Shown here: piece by piece, positions 15,391 to 21,505 of the stretch | Layout: each line of letters opens with the position of its first letter | Numbering within the stretch: the stretch's first letter is position 1 | NCBI GenBank assembly: GCA_964291675.2 | Contig: OZ219866.1 | Coordinates: 1,760,001-1,824,000 of the forward strand | Length of the DNA: 64,000 bases | From: Alphaproteobacteria bacterium | GTDB lineage: Bacteria > Pseudomonadota > Alphaproteobacteria > MPNO01 | Direction: 5' to 3' | Made by a program: the position numbers and the translations under genes | The notes under the pieces: model-generated | The model's database searches: none | What the model saw: only the letters and a program-made list of their open reading frames with translations | What the model was told of the DNA's origin: nothing

Positions 15391-16512
15391 ATGGCAAGCA
15401 TGAGCGGCGTCCGCGAGGTCGCCCATATCGACTGCGCCGGGGGCGGCCAGGTCAGGGTGGACGGCAGCACCGCCTATGTCGGCCACATGGCGGCGCCTTT
15501 CGGAACCTCGATCTTCGACGTGTCCGATCCCGCCTCCCCCCGCCTGCTGGCCGAGATCGGCATGCCGCCCGGCAGCCATTCGCACAAGGTGCGCGCTTGC
15601 GACGGGCTGATGGTGGTCAACCACGAGCGCATCGGCGGGCCGCAGACCGAGGGCTTCGTGGGCGGGCTCGGCATCTACGACGTGGAGGACCCGGCCAGGC
15701 CGCGCCGCATCGCGAACTGGGAGACCTGGGGGAAGGGCGTCCATCGCTTCGATTTCGACGGGCGCTTCGCCTACATCTCGCCGACGGTCGAGGGCTATGT
15801 CGGCAACATCATGATGATCCTCGACCTCGACGACCCCGAGAGGCCGGAGGAGGTCGGGCGCTGGTGGATCCCCGGCCAGTGGGAGGCCGGCGGCGAGGAC
15901 TACCCGTGGGACGACGGGCCCGCCCCGCGCTGCCACCACCCGTTGCGGCTGGGCGACCGGCTGTATACCAGCTACTGGCATCACGGAGTGTTCATCCTCG
16001 GCATCGAGGACATGGCGAGCCCGCGGACGATCTCCGAATACCGGATCAGCCCGGCCTATGCGCACCCGCAGCACACCGCCCTTCCGATCCCGTTCCCGGT
16101 GCAGGGCAAGCGGCTGATGGTGGTCGCCGACGAGGACGTCGCCAAGCTCCGGCCGAGCGCGCCGGCGATCGCCTGGGTGTTCGACGTCACCGACGAGGAG
16201 CGGCCGATCCCGATCTCGACCTTCCAGGTCGACGGTGTCGATCCCGACGGCGCACCGCAGATGCCCATGACCGGCTGCCACCAGCCATCCGAGGTGGTGA
16301 CCGGCACCGAGATCCCGTTCGCCTGGTTCGCCCAGGGGCTGCGGGTGGTCGACATCGCCGACCCGCGCAGGCCGGTCGAGGTCGCCCATTTCCTGCCCGA
16401 CCCGCCGGCCGGCGCCGACCGGGTCTGCGCCAACGACGTGACCGTCGACGATCGCGGCCTGATCTACCTGGTCGACCGGGTTCGCGGCGTCCACATCCTC
16501 GAACGGGTCTGA
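15391..16512 (+). CDS. LVIVD-repeat beta-propeller protein
   Basis: Repeated IFDVSDPASP, IYDVEDPARP, ILDLDDPERP, VFDVTDEERP, VVDIADPRRP blades; ends NDVTVDDRGLIYLVDR..G..ILE. Confidence 0.85.
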   Translation: MASMSGVREVAHIDCAGGGQVRVDGSTAYVGHMAAPFGTSIFDVSDPASPRLLAEIGMPPGSHSHKVRACDGLMVVNHERIGGPQTEGFVGGLGIYDVEDPARPRRIANWETWGKGVHRFDFDGRFAYISPTVEGYVGNIMMILDLDDPERPEEVGRWWIPGQWEAGGEDYPWDDGPAPRCHHPLRLGDRLYTSYWHHGVFILGIEDMASPRTISEYRISPAYAHPQHTALPIPFPVQGKRLMVVADEDVAKLRPSAPAIAWVFDVTDEERPIPISTFQVDGVDPDGAPQMPMTGCHQPSEVVTGTEIPFAWFAQGLRVVDIADPRRPVEVAHFLPDPPAGADRVCANDVTVDDRGLIYLVDRVRGVHILERV

Positions 16513-16653
16513 GTCCGCCAGGCGACGGAAAACAACCCCGTCCGGCGTGAAGTCTGTGAGCGCGGCCCGGTTCGGGCTATTGTCTTGTTCTCAAAGAGTC
16601 TTAGTTTTCTGCGGCGCACGGGCGGGTTGCGGACAGCATGGATCGGACGCGCG

Positions 16654-18276
16654 ATGGGTATGGGTGACGGCGAGGCCTCGGTCGGGCGCCGCGCGCGGGC
16701 GCGCTGCCTGCCTTGCGCGGCATTGGTCCTGGCCGCGCTGGCCGTCCCGGTTTCCGCGCAGGACAAGCCGCCGCCGCTCTCCGGGCGGGCCCAGGCGGCG
16801 GACGCCAACAACAACGGCGTGATCGACCGCGACGAGGCGCGCGGCCCGCTTGCCGCGAATTTCGCGGCGATGGACTGCGACAAGAGCAATTCGCTCGACG
16901 GCAACGAGATCCGCGCCTTCTTCACCGGCGCCGGCTGCCGGTCGCTCGCCGCCGCGCCGCCGGGCGGTCCCGCAACCGCCAAGGCCAGGCCGCCGCCGCT
17001 TCAGCCGCGCGCCAAGACGCTGGATGCAAACGACAACGGCGTCATCGACCGCGACGAGGCGCGCGGCCCTCTCGAAGAGAATTTCGCGGCGATGGACTGC
17101 GACAAGAGCAATTCGCTCGACGCCAACGAGATCCGCGCCCACTTCACCGGCGGCGGCTGCAAGTCGGTCGCCGCGGCGGCGACATCGGCGCCGGCCGCCG
17201 CCGCCCCTGCGCCCAACCGCCGCCCGCCCGCCGGCGGGCGGCCGCCGGCGATGGTCACGCTCGACAGCGTGATCGCCGAGCCGGGCGCGCGGACGGTCCC
17301 GGTCATCGGCCGGCTGGTCGCGCGCCAGTCCGGCGTGGTCGCCAGCCAGGTGCGCGGCGCGGTGATCGAGATGCGGGTCGATGTCGGCGACCGGGTCGAG
17401 CGCGGCCAGATCGTCGCCGTGCTCGCCGCCGGGCGCATGCAGACCGCCCGCGACCGGGCGGCCGCTTCGGTGGCGCGCTTCCGCGGTCTGGTGGCCGCCG
17501 CGGAGGCGGAATACCGGAAGAAGCGCGGCGAGCTGCGGCGGCTCGACCGCCTGCGCAAGTCGGCCGCGTTCTCGCGGGCGCGCTACGAAGATTTGGAGCG
17601 CGACGTGCAGGCGCGCAGCGGCGCGCTGGCGGATCGCCGCGGCCAGCTTCAGGAGGCGCAGGCGCAGCTTCGCCAGGCCGAGCTCGACCTCGCCGATACC
17701 CGCATCGAGGCGCCGTTCCCCGGGGTGGTCACCCAGAAACACATCGACATCGGCACCTATCTCAATGTCGGGGCGCGGGTGGTCAGCATCCTCAACGACA
17801 CCGATCTGGAGGCCGAGGCCGAGGTGCCCTCCGGCCGGCTGCGAGGGCTTTCGGTGGGCGCGCTGGTCACGCTTACCCTCGACGACGGCTCGCGCCACCA
17901 GGCGACGGTCCGCGCCATCGTCCCGATCGAGAACGTGAGGACGCGCACCCGCCCGGTGCGCTTCACCGCCGATTTCGGCAAGACCGGGATGCGGCTCGCG
18001 GCCGACCAGAGCGTGACCGTGCTGATCCCGGTCGGCGGGCGCGGCCAGGTCGCCACCGTGCACAAGGACGCGGTGGTGCGCAGCGGCAGCGACGCCTTCG
18101 TGTTCGTGGTGGAGGACAACCTCGCGCGGCGGGTCAAGGTCCGTCTCGGCGACGGGCTCGGCCCGCGCTTCGTCGTGCTCGACGGCGTGAAGCCGGGGCA
18201 GGAGGTCGTGGTCCGTGGCAACGAGACCCTCGGCCGCGGCGGCCCGGTGCGCATCCGCGGCGCGACCGGGAGCTGA
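16654..18276 (+). CDS. RND efflux periplasmic adaptor (MFP) with N-terminal duplicated EF-hand module
   Basis: Signal peptide (…AVPVSA/QD); four EF-loops; VDVGDRVERGQ lipoyl motif, coiled coil, IEAPFPGVV, RTRTRPVR, GVKPGQEVVVRG. Confidence 0.88.
   Translation: MGMGDGEASVGRRARARCLPCAALVLAALAVPVSAQDKPPPLSGRAQAADANNNGVIDRDEARGPLAANFAAMDCDKSNSLDGNEIRAFFTGAGCRSLAAAPPGGPATAKARPPPLQPRAKTLDANDNGVIDRDEARGPLEENFAAMDCDKSNSLDANEIRAHFTGGGCKSVAAAATSAPAAAAPAPNRRPPAGGRPPAMVTLDSVIAEPGARTVPVIGRLVARQSGVVASQVRGAVIEMRVDVGDRVERGQIVAVLAAGRMQTARDRAAASVARFRGLVAAAEAEYRKKRGELRRLDRLRKSAAFSRARYEDLERDVQARSGALADRRGQLQEAQAQLRQAELDLADTRIEAPFPGVVTQKHIDIGTYLNVGARVVSILNDTDLEAEAEVPSGRLRGLSVGALVTLTLDDGSRHQATVRAIVPIENVRTRTRPVRFTADFGKTGMRLAADQSVTVLIPVGGRGQVATVHKDAVVRSGSDAFVFVVEDNLARRVKVRLGDGLGPRFVVLDGVKPGQEVVVRGNETLGRGGPVRIRGATGS
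16768..17160 (+). repeat. Intragenic tandem duplication with a 222 bp period, encoding two EF-hand pairs
   Basis: 16801-16938 matches 17023-17160, including a 43 bp identical block AATTTCGCGGCGATGGACTGCGACAAGAGCAATTCGCTCGACG. Confidence 0.92.
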
Positions 18277-18298
18277 CGGCCGTGACGGTGGCTCCGCC

Positions 18299-21200
18299 AT
18301 GAACCTGATCCGCCTCGCCATCGAGCGGCCCATGGCGATCGTCGCCATGGTGCTGATGATCGTCCTGTTCGGCTATGTGGCGCTGCAGCGCATCCCGATC
18401 CAGATGGCGCCCGACGTGCGTCAGCCGGTGCTGATCGTCACCACCAACTGGCGCGGCGCGGCGCCGGCGGAGGTCGAGCGCGAGATCGTGATCCCGCAGG
18501 AGGACGAGCTCAAGCGGCTCGAAGGGGTCCAGCGCGTGCTCTCCGAGGCGAGCCACGGGCGCGGCAAGATCACGCTCGAGTTCTCCCCCGGGGTCAATTT
18601 CGACCGCATGCTGCTGCTGGTCTCCAACCGGCTCGACCGGGTGAACACCTATCCCGAGGAGGCCGAGGAGCCGACGCTCGGGACCTCCGGGACCGAGGAC
18701 AACGCCATCGCCTGGTTCGTGTTCAGCCGGGCCGAGGGCAACGACACGCCGATGCTCGAATACGGCGACTTCCTGCGCGACGTGGTGCAGGAGCGCCTGG
18801 AGCGCGTGCCGGGCGTCGGCGGGGTGAACATCTTCGGCGAGACCGAACGCGAGATGCAGATCGTCATCGACCCCGAGCGGCTGGCGCGATACCGGCTCAC
18901 CGTGGGTCAGGTCATCGCCCGGCTGCGCGCCGCCAACGCCTCGATCACCGGCGGCGACATCGACGAAGGCAAGCGCCGCTACACGGTGCGAACCGAGGGC
19001 GATTTCGCGACCCAGGGCGAGGTCGAGGCGGTCGTGCTCCGCTCCAACGCGCGCGGCGCCGGGCTCGGCCGGGTGACGGTGGGGGACATCGCGACCGTCA
19101 CGCTCGCCTACAAGGAGGCGCGCGCGCGGATGTCGTCCAACGGCGTCCCGGCGCTCGCCCTCAACCTGACCCGCGAGCAGGGCGCCAACGTGATCGAGAC
19201 CATGCGGCTGGCCCAGGAGACGATGGCCGGGCTGCGCGACGGCCCGATCAGGGAGGCGGGCCTCAAGGTGCGTCAGGTCTATGACGAGACCGACTACATC
19301 AACTCCTCGATCGCGCTGGTCATGCAGAACATCTATTTCGGCGGCGTGCTGGCGATCGTGATCCTGCTGCTGTTCCTGCGGTCGTGGCGCCCGACCGTGG
19401 TGATCGCCTTCGCCATCCCGGTCTCCGTGGTCGGGTCCTTCGTCGCCATGGCGCTGCTCGGGCGGTCGCTCAACGTGATCAGCCTCGCCGGCATCGCTTT
19501 CGCCGTCGGCATGGTGGTCGATGCCGCGATCGTCGTGCTGGAGAACATCTACCGCCTGCGCCAGGGCGGCATGAGCCGCACCGAGGCCGCCTATCACGGG
19601 ACCGCCCAGGTCTGGCCGGCGGTGCTGGTATCGGCGCTGACCACGGTAATGGTGTTCATCCCGATCCTGATCATGGATCTCGAGGTCGGCCAGCTGTTCC
19701 GCGACATCGCGGTGGCGATCTCGGTGTCGGTGCTGCTGTCGCTGCTGGTCTCCGTGACCCTGATCCCGGCGCTCTCCAACCGGGTGCTGGCCGGCCGCGT
19801 CCCCACGCTGAACGCGATGCCGCGCATCTTCGGCGTCGACTGGCTGGCGCGCGGCTTCGGCTCCTTCTGGCGGTATTTCGCGCGCGTCGTCGTGCGCTCG
19901 AAGGTGCTGGCGCTGCTCGTGGTCGCGGCGATCACCGCGGCGGCGACGGTCTTCGCGATCGCCTTCCTGCCCAAGCTCGACTACCTGCCGATCGGCAACC
20001 GCAATTTCGTCATCGGCTTCGTGCTCCCGCCCGCGGGCTACAATCTCGACACCACCGAAGCCATCGCCCGCGGCGTCCAGGAGAAGACCAAGAAGCACTG
20101 GTCCGACGCGGCGCTCGCCGAGAGCGGGGGCGGCCACCCGCCGGGTACCGACGATGCGCAGAAGATGATCGACCGGTTCTTCTTCGTCGCGCTCAGGGGG
20201 CGCGCCTTCATCGCCGCGCGCCATGTCGACGACCAGAAGGCGCCCGAGCTGGTCCCCATCCTGCAGACGCCGGCCCGGGAAGAGCCCGGAACCTTCGGGT
20301 TCGTCTTTCAGCCGTCCCTGTTCGGCCGCTCCATCGGCAGCGGCCGGTCGATCGACATCGACATCTCGGGCCCCGACCTGGAGACCATCTTCGCGACCGG
20401 GCGGCAGGTGTTCTTCCGCACCATGGGGGCGCTGTCCCCGCGCGACGGCCACCGCACCCGGCCGCGGCCCGCGCTCACCCTGGGCGAGCCCGAAGTCCGG
20501 GTGCTTCCCGACCGGGTCAAGCTCGCCGATAACGGGCTGTCGGCGCGCGACCTCGCCCAGGCCGTCGATGCGTTCAACGACGGGGTTCGGATCGCCGAGA
20601 TCAACGTCGACGGCAAGCGGATCGACCTCACCCTCAAGGGTCCCGCGCGGGAGCAGGAATCGACCCAGTCGATCGGCGTTCTTCCGGTGGTCACGACGGA
20701 CGGGCGGATACTGCCGGTGCAGAGCCTGTCCGAGGTGGGCGTGACCGCGGGGCCCACCCAGATCCGGCGGATCGACCGCGTGAGAACGGTGACGATGTCG
20801 GTCTCGCCAGCCCGCGTGATGCCGCTCCAGGCCGCGATGGACAAGATCAGGTCCGATGTGATCGAGCCGCTTCGCGAGAGCGGCCTGCCCGAGGGCGTGC
20901 ATATCCGCATGTCCGGCTCGGCCGACAAGCTGACGCTGACCTGGAACGAGATCGTGCTCGACCTCGCGCTCGCCGTGATCATCGTCTATTTGGTGATGGC
21001 GGTGCTGTTCGAGAGCTTCGTCTACCCCCTGATCGTCCTGTTGTCCGTGCCGATCGCCGCGGCCGGCGGGCTCGCCGGCCTGTCGGCGCTCAACACCTAT
21101 GTCAACCAGCCGCTCGACATGCTGACCATGCTGGGCTTCGTCATATTGGTGGGGATCGTGGTCAACAACGCGATTCTGCTGGTCCACCAGACGCTCCACC

Positions 21201-21505
21201 ACATCCGTCGCGAGGGCATGACGGCGGGCGATGCGATCGAGGCGGCGACCGAGAACCGCATCCGGCCGATCTTCATGTCGACCCTGACCTCGGTGTTCGG
21301 CATGCTGCCGCTGGTGGTGTTCCCCGGCGCCGGCTCGGAGCTCTATCGCGGGCTCGGATCGGTGGTGCTCGGCGGGCTGTCGCTGTCCGCCGTTCTCACC
21401 ATGGCGGTGGTCCCGCCGATGATGTCGATCACGGTCGGGATCATCGAGCGCCGGGCCGGGAAGAAGGCCGAGGTGCCGCGAGCCGACGTCGCCCCGGCCG
21501 AGTAA
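18299..21505 (+). CDS. RND efflux permease (AcrB/AcrD/AcrF family)
   Basis: AIERP, GAAPAEVE, LERVPGVG, LNVISLAGIAFAVGMVVDAAIVVLEN, LFESFVYP, GIVVNNAILLV, RIRPIFMSTLT. Confidence 0.95.
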   Translation: MNLIRLAIERPMAIVAMVLMIVLFGYVALQRIPIQMAPDVRQPVLIVTTNWRGAAPAEVEREIVIPQEDELKRLEGVQRVLSEASHGRGKITLEFSPGVNFDRMLLLVSNRLDRVNTYPEEAEEPTLGTSGTEDNAIAWFVFSRAEGNDTPMLEYGDFLRDVVQERLERVPGVGGVNIFGETEREMQIVIDPERLARYRLTVGQVIARLRAANASITGGDIDEGKRRYTVRTEGDFATQGEVEAVVLRSNARGAGLGRVTVGDIATVTLAYKEARARMSSNGVPALALNLTREQGANVIETMRLAQETMAGLRDGPIREAGLKVRQVYDETDYINSSIALVMQNIYFGGVLAIVILLLFLRSWRPTVVIAFAIPVSVVGSFVAMALLGRSLNVISLAGIAFAVGMVVDAAIVVLENIYRLRQGGMSRTEAAYHGTAQVWPAVLVSALTTVMVFIPILIMDLEVGQLFRDIAVAISVSVLLSLLVSVTLIPALSNRVLAGRVPTLNAMPRIFGVDWLARGFGSFWRYFARVVVRSKVLALLVVAAITAAATVFAIAFLPKLDYLPIGNRNFVIGFVLPPAGYNLDTTEAIARGVQEKTKKHWSDAALAESGGGHPPGTDDAQKMIDRFFFVALRGRAFIAARHVDDQKAPELVPILQTPAREEPGTFGFVFQPSLFGRSIGSGRSIDIDISGPDLETIFATGRQVFFRTMGALSPRDGHRTRPRPALTLGEPEVRVLPDRVKLADNGLSARDLAQAVDAFNDGVRIAEINVDGKRIDLTLKGPAREQESTQSIGVLPVVTTDGRILPVQSLSEVGVTAGPTQIRRIDRVRTVTMSVSPARVMPLQAAMDKIRSDVIEPLRESGLPEGVHIRMSGSADKLTLTWNEIVLDLALAVIIVYLVMAVLFESFVYPLIVLLSVPIAAAGGLAGLSALNTYVNQPLDMLTMLGFVILVGIVVNNAILLVHQTLHHIRREGMTAGDAIEAATENRIRPIFMSTLTSVFGMLPLVVFPGAGSELYRGLGSVVLGGLSLSAVLTMAVVPPMMSITVGIIERRAGKKAEVPRADVAPAE

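Follow-up and report, generated by a model that had tools for sequence, protein, structure and literature searches.

Paired EF-hand units ahead of the core of an RND efflux adaptor in Alphaproteobacteria: a conserved adaptor variant and a candidate portable periplasmic module

The stretch of DNA analysed here, which we call the window, comprises the 64,000 nucleotides at positions 1,760,001 to 1,824,000 of contig OZ219866.1, from the genome assembly of an alphaproteobacterium (GCA_964291675.2). It contains a two-gene efflux system of the resistance-nodulation-division (RND) type, in which the gene for a periplasmic adaptor is followed directly by the gene for its permease (Table 1). Tripartite efflux adaptors are usually described as an anchor plus four structural domains. 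The adaptor encoded in the window instead carries two EF-hand units, each a pair of predicted Ca2+-binding loops, between its signal peptide and its core. We conclude that this RND adaptor variant is real, conserved and so far uncharacterised. The same unit is also found on other, unrelated periplasmic proteins, and it is this portability that guides our view of what the unit might do.

The adaptor gene is a single open frame on the forward strand (16585/16654..18276), in which the ATG at 16654 yields a protein of 540 amino acids (aa). At the DNA level, the EF-hand region is a direct repeat of 2 x 222 nucleotides (16736-16957 and 16958-17179) whose copies are 82% identical and correspond to two 74-aa units, the second being 76% identical to the first as protein. 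The remainder of the mature protein is a complete adaptor core. It matches the NCBIfam model TIGR01730 (RND_mfp) with 167.9 bits against a cut-off of 94.9, covering profile positions 5-321 of 322, and it exceeds the Pfam cut-offs for HlyD_3 and HlyD_D23. The model for CzcB/NccB adaptors (TIGR00999) gives 108.4 bits and its cut-off of 319.3 is not reached. The nearest solved relatives of the core are TriA-TriB (6vej, E 1.9e-23), MexJ and MacA, and the secondary structure of a full-length AlphaFold model resolves it into membrane-proximal strands, a lipoyl-like domain, a long alpha-hairpin (helices 259-302 and 308-347) and a beta-barrel. A strongly basic motif within the core, E-N-x-R-T-R-T-R-x-x-R (residues 426-437, 17929-17964), is invariant in 18 of 18 aligned family members, and a close variant is present in sister adaptors that lack EF-hand units.

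Table 1. Features of the EF-hand adaptor gene and the adjacent permease gene, in window coordinates
Feature	Position	Strand	Residues	Remarks
Signal peptide, predicted	16654..16758	+	1-35	from the sequence; predicted signal peptidase I site VSA/QD, without lipobox
EF unit 1	16762..16959	+	37-102	loop 1, 12-aa spacer, loop 2
EF unit 1, loop 1	16801-16836		50-61	12 residues, DANNNGVIDRDE
EF unit 1, loop 2	16873-16908		74-85	12 residues, DCDKSNSLDGNE
EF unit 1, first Cys	16876-16878	+	75	
EF unit 1, second Cys	16936-16938	+	95	
Pro/Ala/Gly linker between units	16951..16983	+	100-110	pLDDT <50 in full-length model
EF unit 2	16984..17181	+	111-176	
EF unit 2, loop 1	17023-17058		124-135	12 residues, DANDNGVIDRDE
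EF unit 2, loop 2	17095-17130		148-159	12 residues, DCDKSNSLDANE
EF unit 2, first Cys	17098-17100	+	149	
EF unit 2, second Cys	17158-17160	+	169	
Pro/Ala-rich linker to core	17182..17235	+	177-194	pLDDT <50
RND periplasmic adaptor core	17236..18276	+	195-540 and stop codon	TIGR01730, HlyD_3, HlyD_D23
RND permease	18299..21505	+		Pfam ACR_tran 679.5 bits; starts 23 nt past adaptor stop codon
Permease TM4 motif	19508-19546		405-417	GMVVDAAIVVLEN
Permease TM10 motif	21152-21184		953-963	GIVVNNAILLV

pLDDT, predicted local distance difference test; TM4 and TM10, transmembrane helices 4 and 10.

The N-terminus of the adaptor reads ...AVPVSA/QD and has no L-x-x-C lipobox. In each of the 21 homologues examined, the hydrophobic stretch likewise ends with A-x-A followed by Q or E, and this common ending fits cleavage by signal peptidase I. 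We rejected a lipoprotein anchor, because the lipobox is missing and the two cysteines of the signal peptide (Cys18 and Cys21) sit in the sequence C-L-P-C. The possibility that the EF-hand module is a separate open reading frame (ORF) was also discarded, since one open frame spans module and core both here and in the homologues. An earlier, sequence-only reading of the locus had described two 74-aa units with these same four 12-residue loops and two cysteines apiece, and the repeat and the residue positions match that description exactly. It had also described a cleavable-looking signal peptide (VSA/QD) without a lipobox, loops that lack the position-2 Pro of lanmodulin, and Pro/Ala linkers joining the units to a complete membrane fusion protein (MFP), all of which agree with the present analysis.

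Three Pfam families report the EF-hands above their gathering thresholds: EF-hand_6 (PF13405; 37.6 bits against 25), EF-hand_1 (PF00036; 30.5 against 25.4) and EF-hand_7 (PF13499; 31.2 against 30). The canonical pattern is followed by all four loops, with oxygen ligands at positions 1, 3, 5, 9 and 12, Gly or Asn at position 6, a hydrophobic residue at position 8 and Glu at position 12. Every loop has Asp at position 9. At position 2, where no loop has Pro, loops 1 and 3 carry Ala and loops 2 and 4 carry Cys. When 76 units are aligned, loop positions 1, 9 and 12 show no variation, and conservation at positions 3, 5, 6 and 8 is 90% or higher. Because the metal-ligand positions are nearly invariant in these 76 units and the arrangement recurs in 63 loci, we consider the EF-hand architecture to be beyond chance. 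Several residues outside the ligand positions are conserved as well, namely L6, R9, R23, G28-P29 and N33 of the unit.

A broader collection of 190 distinct units was gathered with a pattern that demanded two canonical loops, and in every one of them 12 residues separate the two loops, though the pattern permitted 10-14. Both cysteines are present in 167 of these units and neither in 23, and not one unit has a single cysteine. This covariation is observed directly, and such an all-or-none distribution is what a disulfide predicts. The placement of the residues fits a putative bond that would link the position-2 Cys of the second loop with the Cys just past the exiting helix, so the suggestion in the sequence-only reading that the EF-hand pairs are disulfide-stabilised now has strong backing from comparative sequence data. 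The 23 Cys-less units are spread over several lineages and unit positions. Units with Gln at position 9 of the first loop, which occur in three loci of a marine clade (L031, L033 and L042), were missed by the pattern, and these also contain both cysteines. Adaptors of the family carry one, two or three units, which are 52-94% identical to each other within one protein. The three units of locus L016 are mutually 86-94% identical and at most 70% identical to the unit of any other genome, which points to recent intragenic duplication or homogenisation. The copy number of the unit shifts quickly among adaptors.

The family is well represented in sequence collections. A word-indexed search in which 8000 candidates were scored returned at least 414 homologues at E<=0.001. 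Among the best 120 of these 414, EF-hand Pfam accessions stand beside the adaptor domains in 111; five of the remaining nine were examined (P0022, P0023, P0026, P0028 and P0105), and each holds one unit. In alphaproteobacterial assemblies, taken as one genome per species, we located 63 distinct related loci from Defluviicoccus, Rhodospirillaceae and marine metagenome-assembled genomes (MAGs), the closest of which, in a Defluviicoccus MAG, is 91% identical. Of 400 further alphaproteobacterial genomes, sampled evenly, 5 have the unit, always on adaptors. Sister adaptors in which the core follows the signal peptide immediately, without any unit, are found at loci L054-L057. The genome from which the window derives (4.8 Mb in 2 contigs, 93.7% complete) contains no second copy of the unit. 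It does have two other EF-hand-like ORFs, at C1:406371-406682 (-) and C2:714009-714251 (-); of these, a frame of 179 aa reaches 44 bits with the lanmodulin (LanM) model, whose cut-off is 135, and a 280-aa frame passes EF-hand_7 when adjacent matches are summed.

We also considered whether the fusion might be an artefact. Short-read contigs from two sequencing runs (X1 and X2) that belong to different studies tile positions 16421-18421, and such contigs bridge the junctions between signal peptide and unit 1, between unit 1 and unit 2, and between unit 2 and the core. The listed pieces from X1, which may be the source sample, are free of mismatches, and those from X2 have 0-5 mismatches except for one divergent piece. 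A relative from a sponge metagenome, about 94% identical as estimated from mismatch counts, bridges unit 2 and the core with the linker replaced. Together, the junction-bridging contigs and the 63 related loci rule out the chimeric assembly that the sequence-only reading had wished to exclude, and they bear out its view that unit and adaptor are fused, here in a single ORF. Architecture and conservation are in this sense directly established. No reads matching the stretch were seen in a raw-read Hi-C run (X21), of which about 1 in 100 was sampled.

To define the system to which the adaptor belongs, ORFs were clustered across the 63 loci and the window, several of the loci being cut by contig ends. 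The adaptor ORF was recovered in 59 of the 64 sources and an adjoining permease in 53, and the permease is the only gene conserved beside the adaptor. It scores 584 bits on the multidrug model NF033617 and 302.9 bits on the CusA/CzcA model TIGR00914 (cut-off 701.45, not reached), and its top solved relatives are 8yr0, 7wlv, CmeB, MdtB, MexB and AcrB. These matches establish the type of pump directly: by sequence, the permease is multidrug-like (HAE-1-like) and not of the heavy-metal type. The TM4 motif occurs in 53 of 53 family permeases. The TM10 motif occurs in 49 of the 53, and its pattern was not found in the other 4, of which 2 are incomplete. Solved relatives have D-D and K-N where this permease clade has D-A and N, and the clade keeps the arginine of R-x-R-P-I. 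By AcrB numbering, two of the three charged residues of the AcrB-type proton relay are missing. Permeases with the same TM4 and TM10 motifs accompany the EF-less adaptors of L054 and L055, in which the permease gene lies within the locus, and the D-A/N signature is therefore not tied to the EF-hand units. No gene for an outer-membrane factor was found within 10 kb in any locus cluster. One such gene is present elsewhere in the genome, on the other contig (C1:372143-373330). The genome as a whole has four RND permeases, and the long hairpin predicted for the adaptor is compatible with docking to an outer-membrane factor.

When AlphaFold models unit 1 alone, the mean pLDDT is 87.2 and the unit forms three short helices and a pair of small beta bridges. 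For the full-length protein, pLDDT values are 74-90 in the units and below 50 in both linkers, and the predicted template modelling score (pTM) is 0.33. We take these values to mean that the units sit like beads on a flexible string in front of an adaptor core that is normal, long hairpin included. A Foldseek search of the PDB with the unit model gave nothing at E<=0.001; the best matches, at E 0.11 and template modelling (TM) scores of 0.5-0.6, are ordinary EF-hand pairs, and a match at this level does not discriminate among them. Lanmodulin is not among the listed matches. A two-copy complex prediction of the unit, made without controls, returned a score of 0.01 against a mark of 0.42.

At the sequence level, however, lanmodulins are the solved structures that match the module best (8fns, E 6.6e-5; 6mi5, E 9.1e-5), and the alignment is gap-free across the first loop, the 12-residue spacer and the second loop. 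Unit and lanmodulin share a spacing of 12 residues between loops (12-13 is a feature of lanmodulin), Asp at loop position 9 and a periplasmic setting. Lanmodulin carries Pro at position 2 of its EF loops, whereas the unit has none there and shows Asn or Ser in place of Asp at positions 3 and 5. Furthermore, lanmodulin is a four-loop protein, and the unit is composed of two loops with a putative disulfide and is fused to larger proteins. The NCBIfam LanM model NF053806 gives 39.4 bits for the adaptor protein against a cut-off of 135, and in a search of the whole genome the values for the two units are 22.9 and 21.3 bits. We therefore regard the spacing as lanmodulin-like, yet the protein, by these scores, is not a lanmodulin.

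A profile built from the 76 units was run against 1.84 billion representative sequences. In all, 8148 matches reached E<=0.001, 25 of them E<=1e-30, and the best 150 matches were classed by a strict unit signature. In this set of 150, the strict unit heads 17 proteins with an adaptor core, 3 DctP-type solute-binding proteins of tripartite ATP-independent periplasmic (TRAP) transporters and 2 proteins with a metallo-beta-lactamase (MBL) fold; it also occurs in 22 short proteins (<200 aa) and in one apparently frameshifted fragment. Another 103 are generic multi-EF-hand proteins with neither the strict signature nor any of the three cores. Pfam confirmed DctP and Lactamase_B_2 on the unit-bearing proteins, and on all three of these unrelated protein types the unit lies directly after the signal peptide. 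At locus L075, the gene for the EF-tagged DctP protein is directly followed by one for a fused DctQM membrane component. Contigs labelled as a single marine Rhodospirillaceae MAG bear the unit on an adaptor (L059), on a DctP protein (L076/L083) and on an MBL-fold protein (L079/L082), which suggests domain shuffling within the lineage. Stellaceae homologues of the DctP protein (L077 and L078) match only residues 113-423 of the query, its DctP part. The portability of the unit is in this way established directly. Separately, the large secreted-looking proteins P0129, P0139, P0146 and P0180 (390-1377 aa) show 7-12 matches to the loop-spacer-loop core; they also match Dockerin_1 and SPARC_Ca_bdg and look like closely spaced EF-hand arrays.

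Given these results, the reading we prefer, and to which we assign roughly even chances, is that the unit is a portable accessory module that folds with Ca2+ and only in the periplasm, and that it is not a gate specific to the pump. The adaptor would be secreted without a membrane anchor, and its mature N-terminus would bear two modules of 66-74 aa on Pro/Ala tethers whose flexibility is apparent in the model. Each module would be a compact EF-hand pair, its two loops 12 residues apart and clamped by a disulfide. After Sec export and removal of the signal peptide, each unit would bind two Ca2+ ions (or another hard cation) and become oxidised. Since metal loading and oxidation would both follow export, folding could take place only outside the cytoplasm. 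The lineage appears to inhabit marine, sponge and wastewater environments. Such habitats hold millimolar Ca2+, at which the unit would remain metal-loaded; this concentration, combined with ordinary EF-hand affinity, would imply permanent loading and thus favours a constitutive accessory role. We envisage a constitutive bead that helps the soluble periplasmic protein to which it is attached, by stabilising or tethering it or by mediating an interaction, and that acts neither as a Ca2+ switch nor as a substrate chaperone. The pump itself is a multidrug-like RND system of two genes whose proton-relay signature is unusual, and it would need to borrow the single outer-membrane factor of the genome. 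Metal binding by the units, their disulfide, their constitutive loading and an accessory role are the inferred parts of this proposal.

Several points weigh against this reading. Among the 23 long proteins with the strict unit, 17 are adaptors, which makes the module mostly an adaptor feature, and a role related to the pump is possible there. The 22 short unit proteins could be fragments, or they could be genuine stand-alone forms. The case for the disulfide draws on covariation among related sequences, in which the 23 Cys-less units do not represent 23 independent losses. The invariant residues outside the ligand positions hint at a specific binding surface, and Asn or Ser at loop positions 3 and 5 might make Ca2+ binding weak enough to respond to the environment. 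Finally, the habitat argument is thin, as it relies on the titles of source records and on the one sponge-metagenome relative.

The unit might instead serve as a Ca2+-responsive gate, with Ca2+ on the tethered EF-hand pairs altering their shape or contacts so that the hexameric adaptor ring assembles or opens at certain Ca2+ concentrations. The canonical and strongly conserved loops, the conserved surface residues, the preponderance of adaptors among the long carriers and the position of the units next to the membrane-proximal end of the core in the full-length model are all in keeping with this idea, and a part in Ca2+ signalling is reported for two periplasmic EF-hand proteins, EfhP (PMC9132961) and Caulobacter CaBP (PMC13171946). 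We nonetheless judge a gate to be unlikely. The unit is shared with TRAP binding proteins and MBL-fold proteins, close relatives differ in how many copies they carry (1 to 3), and EF-less sister adaptors exist, two of which (L054 and L055) pair with the same type of permease. The portability of the module in particular makes a pump-specific calcium switch the less likely explanation, and, with a permease that is multidrug-like in addition, the suggestion in the sequence-only reading that the module could gate the pump or deliver its substrate is not supported. Moreover, the units are not packed confidently on the core in the full-length model (pTM 0.33). Typical EF-hand affinities for Ca2+ are micromolar and would be saturated at marine Ca2+ concentrations. 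Alternatively, the unit might aid export or folding, remaining unfolded in the cytoplasm and snapping shut after translocation, where Ca2+ and oxidation are available, to serve as a ratchet, a solubility tag or a protease shield. The fact that it always comes right behind the signal peptide, whichever of the three unrelated protein types carries it, its minimal three-helix form with a very small hydrophobic core, the all-or-none cysteine pair and the tolerance of tandem amplification would suit such a function. However, relatives without the unit (adaptors L054-L057 and the Stellaceae DctP proteins L077 and L078) are presumably exported anyway, the unit's presence in only 5 of the 400 other sampled genomes gives no sign of a general need, and the strongly conserved surface residues would be left unexplained. 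We hold this explanation to be improbable to the same degree as the gate.

The likeness to lanmodulin raises a different prospect, in which the EF-hand units trap a Ca2+-mimicking hard cation (a lanthanide, Cd2+ or Pb2+), which they either pass to the pump or buffer. The gap-free lanmodulin matches, the weak LanM score of 39 bits, Asp at position 9 of all four loops and the single-Asp TM4 signature of the permease can each be cited in its favour. There is also a parallel in Methylobacillus flagellatus, where a CusA-like, La3+-induced RND system has been proposed, without proof, to export lanthanides (PMC9988556). Set against this, the LanM score is far under its cut-off (39 versus 135), the loops have no Pro at position 2, and permease and adaptor core match multidrug rather than heavy-metal models. 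In the same 93.7% complete genome, no XoxF/PedH-type pyrroloquinoline quinone (PQQ) dehydrogenase exceeds its cut-off (best 47.9 versus 480 bits), nor does any LanM. The occurrence of the unit on TRAP binding and MBL-fold proteins is a poor fit for a chaperone dedicated to a pump, and the D-A/N permease signature also accompanies EF-less adaptors. We consider metal capture of this kind very unlikely. A more elaborate version merges it with Ca2+ control. AcrA-type pumps contain six adaptors, and with 2 units per adaptor and 2 sites per unit (6 x 2 x 2) the tethered EF-hand pairs would surround the base of the pump with as many as 24 hard-cation sites arranged in a ring. These would either capture for export a metal that resembles Ca2+, a lanthanide for instance, or switch the pump by periplasmic Ca2+. 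Coupled with the non-canonical, single-Asp relay (D-A and N versus D-D and K), this would constitute a new hard-metal class of RND system, a proposal that we find quite unlikely. The accessory module remains the reading we favour.

The adaptor shares several features with those of well-studied pumps. Like AcrA, MexJ, TriA-TriB and MacA, it has a core that matches TIGR01730, a predicted long alpha-hairpin with beta domains, and a gene located upstream of that for an RND permease. It differs from them in having no lipid or transmembrane anchor, in the 1-3 EF-hand units between signal peptide and core, and in the location of the outer-membrane factor gene, which is elsewhere in the genome and not adjacent. 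Adaptors with built-in metal sites exist, such as CusB with its N-terminal Met site and SilB with its C-terminal CusF-like domain, and the concept of a metal-binding element fused to an RND adaptor is the same. However, CusB and SilB handle the soft ions Cu(I) and Ag(I) through Met or His in heavy-metal RND systems, whereas the units described here present hard oxygen ligands beside a multidrug-like pump. Among eukaryotic matrix proteins, SPARC/BM-40 likewise has an EF-hand pair braced by disulfides in an oxidising, high-Ca2+ compartment, and multi-EF-hand proteins from the unit-profile search match SPARC_Ca_bdg. Its Cys positions differ, and the window protein has no SPARC_Ca_bdg match at E<=0.1. 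Small EF-hand proteins for which Ca2+ binding is reported include EfhP of Pseudomonas aeruginosa (PMC9132961) and CaBP of Caulobacter vibrioides, the latter localised to the periplasm (PMC13171946). As described in the consulted portions of those reports, and compared by description only, these are stand-alone components of Ca2+ signalling with no transporter fusion mentioned.

Full-text literature, with supplements and most subscription journals outside its coverage, yielded no description of an EF-hand adaptor or an EF-hand TRAP binding protein, in keeping with the statement in the sequence-only reading that no characterised EF-hand MFP was known. A conserved adaptor family with predicted Ca2+-binding modules at the position of the anchor is thus absent from the literature searched. 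Induction of MexEF by La3+ is reported (PMC7188995). If it is true that the modules influence assembly, they would add a new layer of pump control. The unit would also rank among the smallest self-contained EF-hand pairs, with about 55 ordered residues, a lanmodulin-like spacing and a putative disulfide clamp. Because it moves between periplasmic proteins, it may be of use as a metal-binding tag, and it offers a test case for EF-hands in an oxidising, high-calcium compartment. Furthermore, a permease clade that does without two of the three charged residues of the AcrB relay bears on how RND pumps are energised.

Beyond the permease, no operon partner is conserved across the 63 loci and the window, and the remaining gene clusters are lineage-specific. 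A gene for an LVIVD-repeat protein is upstream of the adaptor in 13 sources, a short-chain dehydrogenase/reductase (SDR) gene is upstream in 19 loci, and a Sir2 gene is downstream in 15. In most of the 13 sources, including the window (15391-16512 (+), 373 aa), the LVIVD-repeat gene is directly upstream in the same orientation, and in 11 of the 13 it is separated from the adaptor gene by 25-115 nt. A terminator-like hairpin lies between the two genes in the window (16564-16578), and a promoter scan of 16300-16800 detected no sigma-70-like site. In 14 loci of the marine clade (L012, L014, L016-L018, L022-L024, L030, L031, L033-L035 and L042), a short-chain dehydrogenase gene (adh_short, 195 bits) that is absent from the window is found upstream of the adaptor in the same orientation, at distances of up to about 2.6 kb.

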